A stretch of DNA of 64,000 nt from Escherichia coli (GCF_016903815.1 NZ_CP069973.1), one strand, 5' to 3'; shown: positions 38,533 through 38,598, numbered from the stretch's first letter. Notes: generated from the letters alone by a model not told the origin. A program made the numbers and translations.

Positions 38533-38598
38533 CAACCCGAAACGGGCATAAATAAACCCGTTTCGGGTAGCATCCAATTGTTAATAATTATTATTCTC
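38533..38598. promoter_or_regulatory. irp2 promoter: inverted repeat (candidate YbtA site) plus Fur-box-like element
   Basis: ACCCGAAACGGG...CCCGTTTCGGGTAGCA at 38535-38572, then AT-rich TTGTTAATAATTATTATTCTCAT at about 38576-38598. The same repeat motif recurs upstream of fyuA. Confidence 0.65.

Follow-up and report, generated by a model that had tools for sequence, protein, structure and literature searches.

The repeat pair and Fur box upstream of irp2 in Escherichia coli and their counterparts in the HPI and beside YbtA homologues

The region upstream of irp2, which belongs to the iron-scavenging yersiniabactin system of the high-pathogenicity island (HPI) of Escherichia coli, combines a conspicuous repeat with an AT-rich sequence resembling a Fur box. 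Which regulators act through these elements, in what form is the repeat conserved, and do the other promoters of the island carry the same arrangement? We addressed these questions in a 64-kb stretch of E. coli chromosome (hereafter the window) and in loci that encode homologues of the regulator YbtA.

The irp2 control region and its setting

The window extends from the fli operons by way of dcm/vsr, hprRS, msrPQ, zinT, mtfA and a tRNA-Asn gene (29784-29859) into the HPI, whose gene order we confirmed as ybtS-X-Q-P (on the minus strand), ybtA, irp2-irp1-ybtU-T-E and fyuA (57938-59959). The ybtA open reading frame occupies positions 37493-38452 on the plus strand and is named "yersiniabactin transcriptional regulator YbtA" by RefSeq in genomes that are 100% identical; it encodes an AraC-family regulator whose AraC-type helix-turn-helix (HTH) region corresponds to residues ~213-318. 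The start codon of irp2 (ATG) lies at 38643, and this gene as well as the irp1, ybtU, ybtT and ybtE genes that follow it bear these RefSeq names on identical DNA. The 221 bases between 38440 and 38660 are 100% identical to the ybtA-irp2 interval of many sequenced E. coli strains, and the interval is present in 2265 of 5426 complete E. coli genomes.

Next to the tRNA-Asn gene lies a decayed HPI integrase gene (30021-30936). The record of the identical strain 222 annotates it as a frameshifted pseudogene, and it spans 916 bp here, compared with 1263 bp for the intact gene of Nissle 1917. The HPI is probably fixed in place in this strain. Outside the island, the same strain 222 annotation shows an IS1 element (21253-21950) inserted with a truncated HD-domain gene on one side and hchA, truncated at its 5' end, on the other. 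The DsrA small RNA (13536-13622, minus strand) scores 102.5 bits with its Rfam model and is encoded between yodD and yedP, in the vicinity of dsrB and rcsA.

Upstream of irp2 we found the sequence ACCCGAAACGGG (38535-38546), a 10-nt spacer (CATAAATAAA) and the sequence CCCGTTTCGGGT (38557-38568), followed by AGCA. The two arms are 12 nt each and 100% complementary, and the AT-rich sequence beyond them (38580-38598, plus strand; GTTAATAATTATTATTCTC) matches the 19-bp 9-1-9 Fur consensus that we used (GATAATGATAATCATTATC) at 15 of 19 positions. The original prediction had described precisely this, an inverted repeat with 10-nt spacing and an AT-rich Fur-like box, and that description stands. The 64 kb contain four perfect inverted repeats with arms of 12 nt or more and a loop of 3-20 nt, while only 0.12 would be expected in a Markov-1 random sequence. 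Besides the irp2 repeat, these comprise the terminators of ybtA and fyuA and a repeat at 16507-16550. The last of these, a perfect 15-nt inverted repeat (ACACCCGACCGGATG...) situated between the convergently ending dgcQ and yodC region, is probably a terminator. As to the Fur box, 38580-38598 and a second site at 37403-37421, both at 15/19, are the two best Fur matches in the 64 kb, and shuffling of the window yielded an expectation of 0.05 sites at 15/19 or better per shuffle. Two matches at 14/19 (6383-6401 and 7976-7994) fall within the fliJ and fliL coding sequences and were treated as chance occurrences.

Read in a single direction, the same stretch resolves into two YbtA half-sites (RS). 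The distal half-site (CCGAAACGGGCAT; 38537-38549, plus strand) holds most of the left arm, and the proximal one (CCGTTTCGGGTAG; 38558-38570, plus strand), located 21 bp from it, contains the right arm. A TATTAT hexamer (38589-38594) is found inside the Fur box, with GGTAGC 17 bp upstream of it. A simple scan of 37250-38700 and 57700-58000 did not return a sigma-70 consensus promoter, a result that is expected of activator-dependent promoters and uninformative for them. As no consensus promoter was detected, the −35 and −10 positions of irp2 are assigned putatively, and the 3' end of the proximal half-site would reach the −35 position.

We are highly confident that the region between 38537 and 38598 is the already described YbtA/Fur control region that constitutes the regulatory core of the irp2-irp1-ybtUTE promoter. 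The RS repeats have been reported as specific binding sites of YbtA in the irp2, fyuA and irp6/ybtA promoters, where YbtA activates irp2, fyuA and irp6 while repressing ybtA (PMC5634559). The same RS/YbtA arrangement has been given for UTI89, with sites called "putative" or "predicted" (PMC8725597). The published Fur site of irp2, GTTAATAATTATTATTCTC, lies 44 bp upstream of the start codon and overlaps the predicted −10 (PMC11225919); this 19-mer is exactly 38580-38598. Moreover, purified His-Fur shifts irp2 and ybtA promoter fragments in EMSA (PMC11225919). Congruently, the dual control of irp2 by Fur and YbtA that had been put forward for this locus matches both the published RS repeats (PMC5634559, PMC8725597) and the published Fur 19-mer with its EMSA (PMC11225919). 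The irp2 element was already known: it is a textbook case of the control of a much-studied siderophore operon that is associated with virulence.

The original prediction depended on the repeat being conserved in other copies of the HPI. In the variants that we sampled from E. coli, from Salmonella plasmids and from K. pneumoniae plasmids, the repeats are identical at 37/37 positions and the Fur box at 19/19, and all the substitutions in the 190-nt intergenic region fall outside these elements. In K. oxytoca and K. michiganensis, 34-36 of the 37 repeat positions and 18-19 of the 19 Fur box positions are retained, whereas identity in the upstream flank falls to 41-46 of 66. Among E. coli genomes, which are non-independent samples, the segment 38530-38573 is unchanged in 2236 of 2265, whereas the 66-nt terminator segment next to it is unchanged in 1416 of 2197. 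Strain E14 shows a change from CGGG to GGGG in the distal half-site, at a position where both bases are found across the family. These results indicate that the irp2 feature is genuine, far from a chance occurrence, and under functional constraint.

The fyuA and ybtP/ybtA promoters

The sequence ACCCGAAACAGG (57818-57829), located upstream of fyuA, differs from the corresponding irp2 arm by one mismatch, and the second arm is identical. A 23-nt exact word (AAATAAACCCGTTTCGGGTAGCA) is common to the fyuA and irp2 promoters, confirming that a nearly identical repeat recurs upstream of fyuA, as had been proposed. The fyuA half-site pair (57820-57853, plus strand) consists of CCGAAACAGGTTG (57820-57832) and CCGTTTCGGGTAG (57841-57853), and 10 nt after the proximal half-site begins a Fur-like box (AGAAATAGTTATCATTTTC; 57864-57882, plus strand) with a 13/19 match.

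The divergent ybtP/ybtA region had been described as carrying a Fur-like box but no repeat. This claim has to be corrected, since the region does carry one: a degenerate pair of YbtA half-sites lies at 37432-37465 on the minus strand, facing ybtP and in the same register as the other two. On that strand the order is CCAATGCGGGTAT (37465-37453), AAATAGAA, CCGAATGGGGTAG (37444-37432), 10 nt, and then the Fur box (37421-37403). This box, which reads GTGAATAATAACCATTATC on the plus strand (37403-37421; 15/19), is common to the divergent ybtA and ybtP promoters and is one base off the site in the pESI ybtA promoter, which is shifted by Fur in EMSA (PMC11225919). The irp2, fyuA and ybtP promoters can be aligned over the whole stretch of repeats and Fur box with no gap, and in each of them 9-10 nt separate the Fur box from the proximal half-site. 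The two units of the ybtP/ybtA copy score 17.6 and 14.5 bits with a 13-nt matrix that was derived from 44 half-sites. The repeat search of the window did not report this copy. A 12-mer search with 3 mismatches allowed gave 53 matches when 53.1 were expected, so degenerate copies cannot be found by a search of this kind, and the degeneracy also explains why the copy was missed when the sequence was read by eye.

A Fur motif scan of the three HPI promoters, suggested along with the original prediction, gave 15/19 for irp2, 15/19 for ybtP/ybtA and 13/19 for fyuA. The further proposal that differences between the promoters may reflect differential regulation holds in part: its premise, the presence or absence of the repeat, fails, while the promoters do differ in the quality of their sites and in the double use of one of them. 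A pair of the ybtP/ybtA type is kept in every YbtA-homologue locus that we examined.

The double use concerns the ybtA leader. Two YbtA sites have been placed in the 5' leader of ybtA, which is autorepressed (PMC8805033), and the ybtA/irp6 region has been described as containing three repeats (PMC5634559). On pESI, the transcription start site (TSS) of ybtA was located by RACE at a C 5 bp downstream of the Fur box (PMC11225919). This TSS corresponds to approximately position 37427 of the window, which puts the repeat pair at ~+6 to +39 of the ybtA transcript, within its 5' UTR. The same bound YbtA could consequently activate ybtP and repress ybtA.

A natural alteration of this leader exists in Salmonella, where pESI has a 201-bp insertion within one of the three repeats (PMC11225919). 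We found it at ~355-555 of the locus retrieved from a pESI-like plasmid of Salmonella Infantis (L014; NZ_CP148845.1), in the ybtA leader, where it splits the half-site ATACCC/GCATTGG, the equivalent of 37453-37465, at window position 37459/37460. The inserted DNA carries a sequence (CCCCAGGAGCTTACAGAAGTAAGTGACTGG...) that we take to be ERIC-like.

The names of published reporter constructs imply that the third repeat, RS3, is on the ybtP side of the Fur box (PMC5634559). The 13-nt matrix gave no half-site match of at least 5 bits in 37237-37431, and in the homologue loci it gave isolated matches in Pluralibacter and Burkholderia only. A candidate chosen by eye (37370-37386) was discarded as it is not conserved in S. 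symbiotica. The ybtP side also contains an inverted repeat, GACGCCAAAAAC...GGTGGCGTTC (ACGCCA...TGGCGT, ~37359-37392), which is kept in E. coli, in Klebsiella species and in S. symbiotica, and which may or may not be the published RS3.

Other features of these leaders were noted on the way. The ybtP leader (minus strand, AATTGTCGTTTTTGGCGT) and the fyuA leader (CATTGTCGGTATTTTTGGCGT; 57890-57912) have the word TTTTTGGCGT in common. CsrA-binding motifs have been reported upstream of ybtA (CCACAGGGAGAT) and upstream of fyuA (TTACAGGGACTC) (PMC8805033); both occur verbatim in the window, at 37472-37483 and 57920-57931, just downstream of the YbtA sites in both leaders. The start of ybtP is annotated inconsistently, with 570 aa in RefSeq Nissle 1917 (37236) and 600 aa in the open frame and in AMRFinder on pESI (37326), and depending on the start chosen the ybtP/ybtA intergenic region measures 166 or 256 bp.

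Repeat pairs beside YbtA homologues

We compared 23 promoters adjacent to YbtA homologues of 41-100% identity (Klebsiella, Serratia, Pectobacterium, Xenorhabdus, Burkholderia, Xanthomonas, Halomonas and others). The loci came from a protein-based scan plus exact look-ups; a contig scan gave Klebsiella, Pectobacterium and Serratia only, and the listed members of the YbtA protein cluster belong to E. coli or Klebsiella. Identity to YbtA is 79% in S. symbiotica, 57% in Pluralibacter, 56% in Xenorhabdus, 55-56% in Pectobacterium, 52% in Serratia marcescens, 51% in an Erwinia-like genome, 49% in Burkholderia oklahomensis, 47% in Agarivorans, 46% in Xanthomonas and 41% in Halomonas. YbtA and its homologues match AraC-family models over their C-terminal ~100 residues and carry Pfam PF12833 and PF00165. 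The regulator genes are neighbored by ABC exporters, MFS transporters, TonB-dependent receptors or HMWP2-like NRPS genes, and the repeat module occurs next to homologues of 41-79% identity in 11 further loci. At every locus the motif is found in the intergenic regions flanking the regulator, always oriented toward the neighboring gene and usually followed by a Fur box.

All 23 promoters contain the conserved unit CCGWTNCGGGTAG twice, 21 bp from start to start. The 36-nt consensus is CCGAt.CGGG.agAA AtAaAa CcGatTcGGGTAG, in which both units are alike when read in one direction (CCGAt.CGGGtAg and CCGatTCGGGTAG) and both are preceded by A.A; conservation across the 23 promoters is highest for the block GGGTAG in the gene-proximal unit. 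For a 36-nt weight matrix we used the first eight sites alone (E. coli, Klebsiella, Pectobacterium and S. marcescens). With this matrix the best site scored 19-47 bits in each of the eight loci added later, and no more than five positions of the 64-kb window attained 15 bits. Counted from the proximal half-site, the start of the best Fur match is 9-11 nt away in 17/23 promoters and 4 nt away, that is, at a distance of one Fur hexamer, in another 4/23. In two promoters downstream of the regulator, those of S. marcescens and of the Erwinia-like locus, we did not recognize a Fur box (best match 9/19). These pairs (3435-3475 of L006 and 2468-2503 of L019) precede a small ORF or an MFS transporter, and the promoters may be under YbtA-type control without direct control by Fur.

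The recurrence of the repeat at irp2 and fyuA, a 23-nt exact word at two sites 19 kb apart, might also be what a duplicated or mobile remnant of the REP or MITE kind, with no regulatory role, leaves behind, and the 201-bp ERIC-like insert in the pESI ybtA leader shows that small mobile repeats do occur in this region. Nevertheless, the repeat keeps a fixed position with respect to both Fur box and start codon in 23 promoters of distant taxa, strong matches in the window are confined to the three HPI promoters, and substitutions avoid the repeat, so that we grant this explanation almost no probability. Single, unpaired matches resembling a half-site were seen at 57666 (inside ybtE), at 38497 (in the loop of the ybtA terminator) and at 12695.

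The comparison also bears on the symmetry of the repeat. Each unit has its own internal CCG/CGG dyad, and the unit centers of the HPI-type irp2 and fyuA promoters are AAA and TTT; thus, the pair also reads there as a perfect palindrome. This property is not general, given that arm complementarity is only 4-8/12 in many of the homologues. Per-promoter identity of the two units showed no clear preference, with a mean of 7.65 of 12 for the direct and 7.43 of 12 for the inverted comparison. The flanks common to both units, A.A before and TAG after, suggest that they form a direct (head-to-tail) pair. Judged from these alignments, the term "inverted repeat" appears too narrow, and the conserved feature is better described as a pair of like-oriented 13-mers 21 bp apart.

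An inverted repeat next to a gene end could alternatively act as a nucleic-acid hairpin, either a second ybtA terminator or attenuator, an RNA stability element or a DNA cruciform, without being a protein site. RNA folding gave −21.7 kcal/mol for the irp2 copy (z = −6.1) and −20.2 kcal/mol for the fyuA copy (z = −6.0), and a simple terminator scan flagged, on the minus strand, the mini-palindrome within the proximal half-site. However, the folding signal disappears in the ybtP/ybtA copy (z = +0.1) and in S. marcescens (z = 0.0) and is reduced in Pectobacterium (z = −1.8), yet the sequence motif is kept in all of them, and the low arm complementarity of many homologues (4-8/12) comes with no compensatory pattern. 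Furthermore, no U-tract follows the stem, and a strong terminator of ybtA already exists 20 nt upstream. This intrinsic-terminator-like hairpin (38484-38516, plus strand), directly upstream of the repeats, has a 14-bp stem and a 5-nt loop followed by TTCTTTCC, folds with a dG of −29.3 kcal/mol (z = −7.6) and retains its stem in K. oxytoca and K. michiganensis despite the diverged flanks. Since the folding potential of the repeat is not conserved and there is no match to an Rfam family, we rejected the reading as a hairpin, terminator or RNA element, which we hold to be very improbable.

If the repeats are protein sites, they could be bound mainly by another chromosomal regulator, either AraC-like or a symmetric dimer that reads the palindrome, with YbtA acting indirectly. 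The full ybtA region is active in the HPI-negative K-12 strain DH5alpha, for which an unknown AraC-like factor binding "in YbtA-like fashion" was proposed (PMC5634559), and a symmetric dimer would fit the perfect dyad seen at irp2 and fyuA. Against this, it is the like-oriented 13-mers that are conserved and not the palindrome, and the expression of irp2, fyuA and ybtP depends on YbtA in the literature (PMC5634559, PMC8725597, PMC8805033). The motif also accompanies YbtA homologues in beta- and gamma-proteobacteria, and most loci have it on both flanks of the regulator gene, as expected of the regulator's own sites and not of those of a host factor. We thus regard another principal regulator as very unlikely and retain YbtA as the protein that most likely binds the pair.

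An apparently transport-only locus was found in Klebsiella indica TOUT106 (3516-3645 of L001; 4970-13160 of L025). It comprises ybtX-ybtQ-ybtP, ybtA and fyuA, without ybtS and irp2-irp1-ybtUTE, and has unrelated genes on both sides. Its fyuA promoter is a mosaic that combines an irp2-type first repeat (CGGGCATAAATAA) and an irp2-type CAATT behind the second repeat with a Fur box and leader of the fyuA type. This structure is consistent with a deletion through recombination between the two promoter modules that would have left a transport-only cassette.

A wider reading, which we consider evenly balanced between right and wrong, is that the RS1-RS2-Fur box unit is an ancient promoter cassette, both rigid and portable, that serves siderophore clusters of the yersiniabactin type generally and is not peculiar to the island of Yersinia and E. 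coli. The arrangement extends to regulators that share only 41-57% identity with YbtA, in Burkholderia, Xanthomonas, Halomonas, Agarivorans, Xenorhabdus, Pectobacterium and Serratia. On this reading YbtA-family proteins would bind head-to-tail, and the perfect palindrome of the HPI would be incidental. The repeated cassettes may in addition serve as substrates for recombination, as K. indica would exemplify. We found no description of the family-wide consensus in the searchable literature, whose scope leaves out the primary Yersinia RS papers. The consensus and the fixed spacing are a modest comparative addition and do not define a new kind of element. They could be used to annotate YbtA-type regulons elsewhere, across genera, by means of the fixed distance to the Fur box, and they allow natural changes to be read, such as the C-to-G change of E14, the ERIC-like insertion of pESI and the transport-only locus of K. 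indica.

Proposed mechanism and comparison with known systems

The mechanism that we consider most likely, and the best supported, couples a class II activator site of the AraC type with a Fur operator; the −35/−10 positions and the dimer geometry are inferred. YbtA would most likely act as a dimer with one monomer on each half-site (CCGAAACGGGCAT and CCGTTTCGGGTAG), and the 21 bp between them, equal to two helical turns, would place both monomers on the same side of the DNA. GGGTAG, at the end of the proximal half-site, would abut or overlap the −35, from where YbtA loaded with metal-yersiniabactin would recruit RNA polymerase, like AraC at I1-I2. The Fur box starts 9 nt past the proximal half-site and would cover the −10, for which TATTAT is the candidate. 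When iron is present, Fe-Fur would occlude the promoter with or without bound YbtA. The same module would drive fyuA and, more weakly, ybtP.

With respect to the Fur box itself, the irp2 site is slightly off-consensus and very AT-rich, and the fyuA box is weaker. As for the activator site, the architecture of araI1-I2 and of class II activators of the AraC/XylS family is well established: like-oriented half-sites ~21 bp apart from center to center, the proximal one reaching the −35 region. The irp2 pair resembles this layout, and its presumed regulator likewise has a C-terminal double-HTH AraC domain. In contrast, the half-site CCGWTNCGGGTAG is unrelated in sequence to araI, and each half-site has its own internal CCG/CGG dyad.

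The closest relatives are the RS1/RS2(/RS3) repeats of the Yersinia HPI. Fetherston, Bearden and Perry in 1996 (Mol Microbiol 22:315) and Anisimov et al. in 2005 (IJMM 295:19; FEMS Microbiol Lett 250:27) reportedly identified them as the YbtA sites of psn(fyuA), irp2 and ybtP(irp6)/ybtA. The island, the genes and the position are the same, with repeat pairs upstream of a Fur box at irp2 and fyuA, and with sites of the divergent region in the ybtA leader; judging by the layout as given in secondary literature, there is no substantive difference.

Finally, the PchR-box of the pyochelin promoters of Pseudomonas aeruginosa, said to have been described by Michel et al. in 2005 (Mol Microbiol 58:495), offers an analogy in logic. 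Michel et al. 2005 is the reference cited for the PchR-box in PMC11240249. Here too an AraC-type regulator requires its own thiazoline siderophore as effector, and PchR binds a conserved box in the promoters of biosynthesis, receptor and regulator genes, beside Fur boxes, and represses its own gene.
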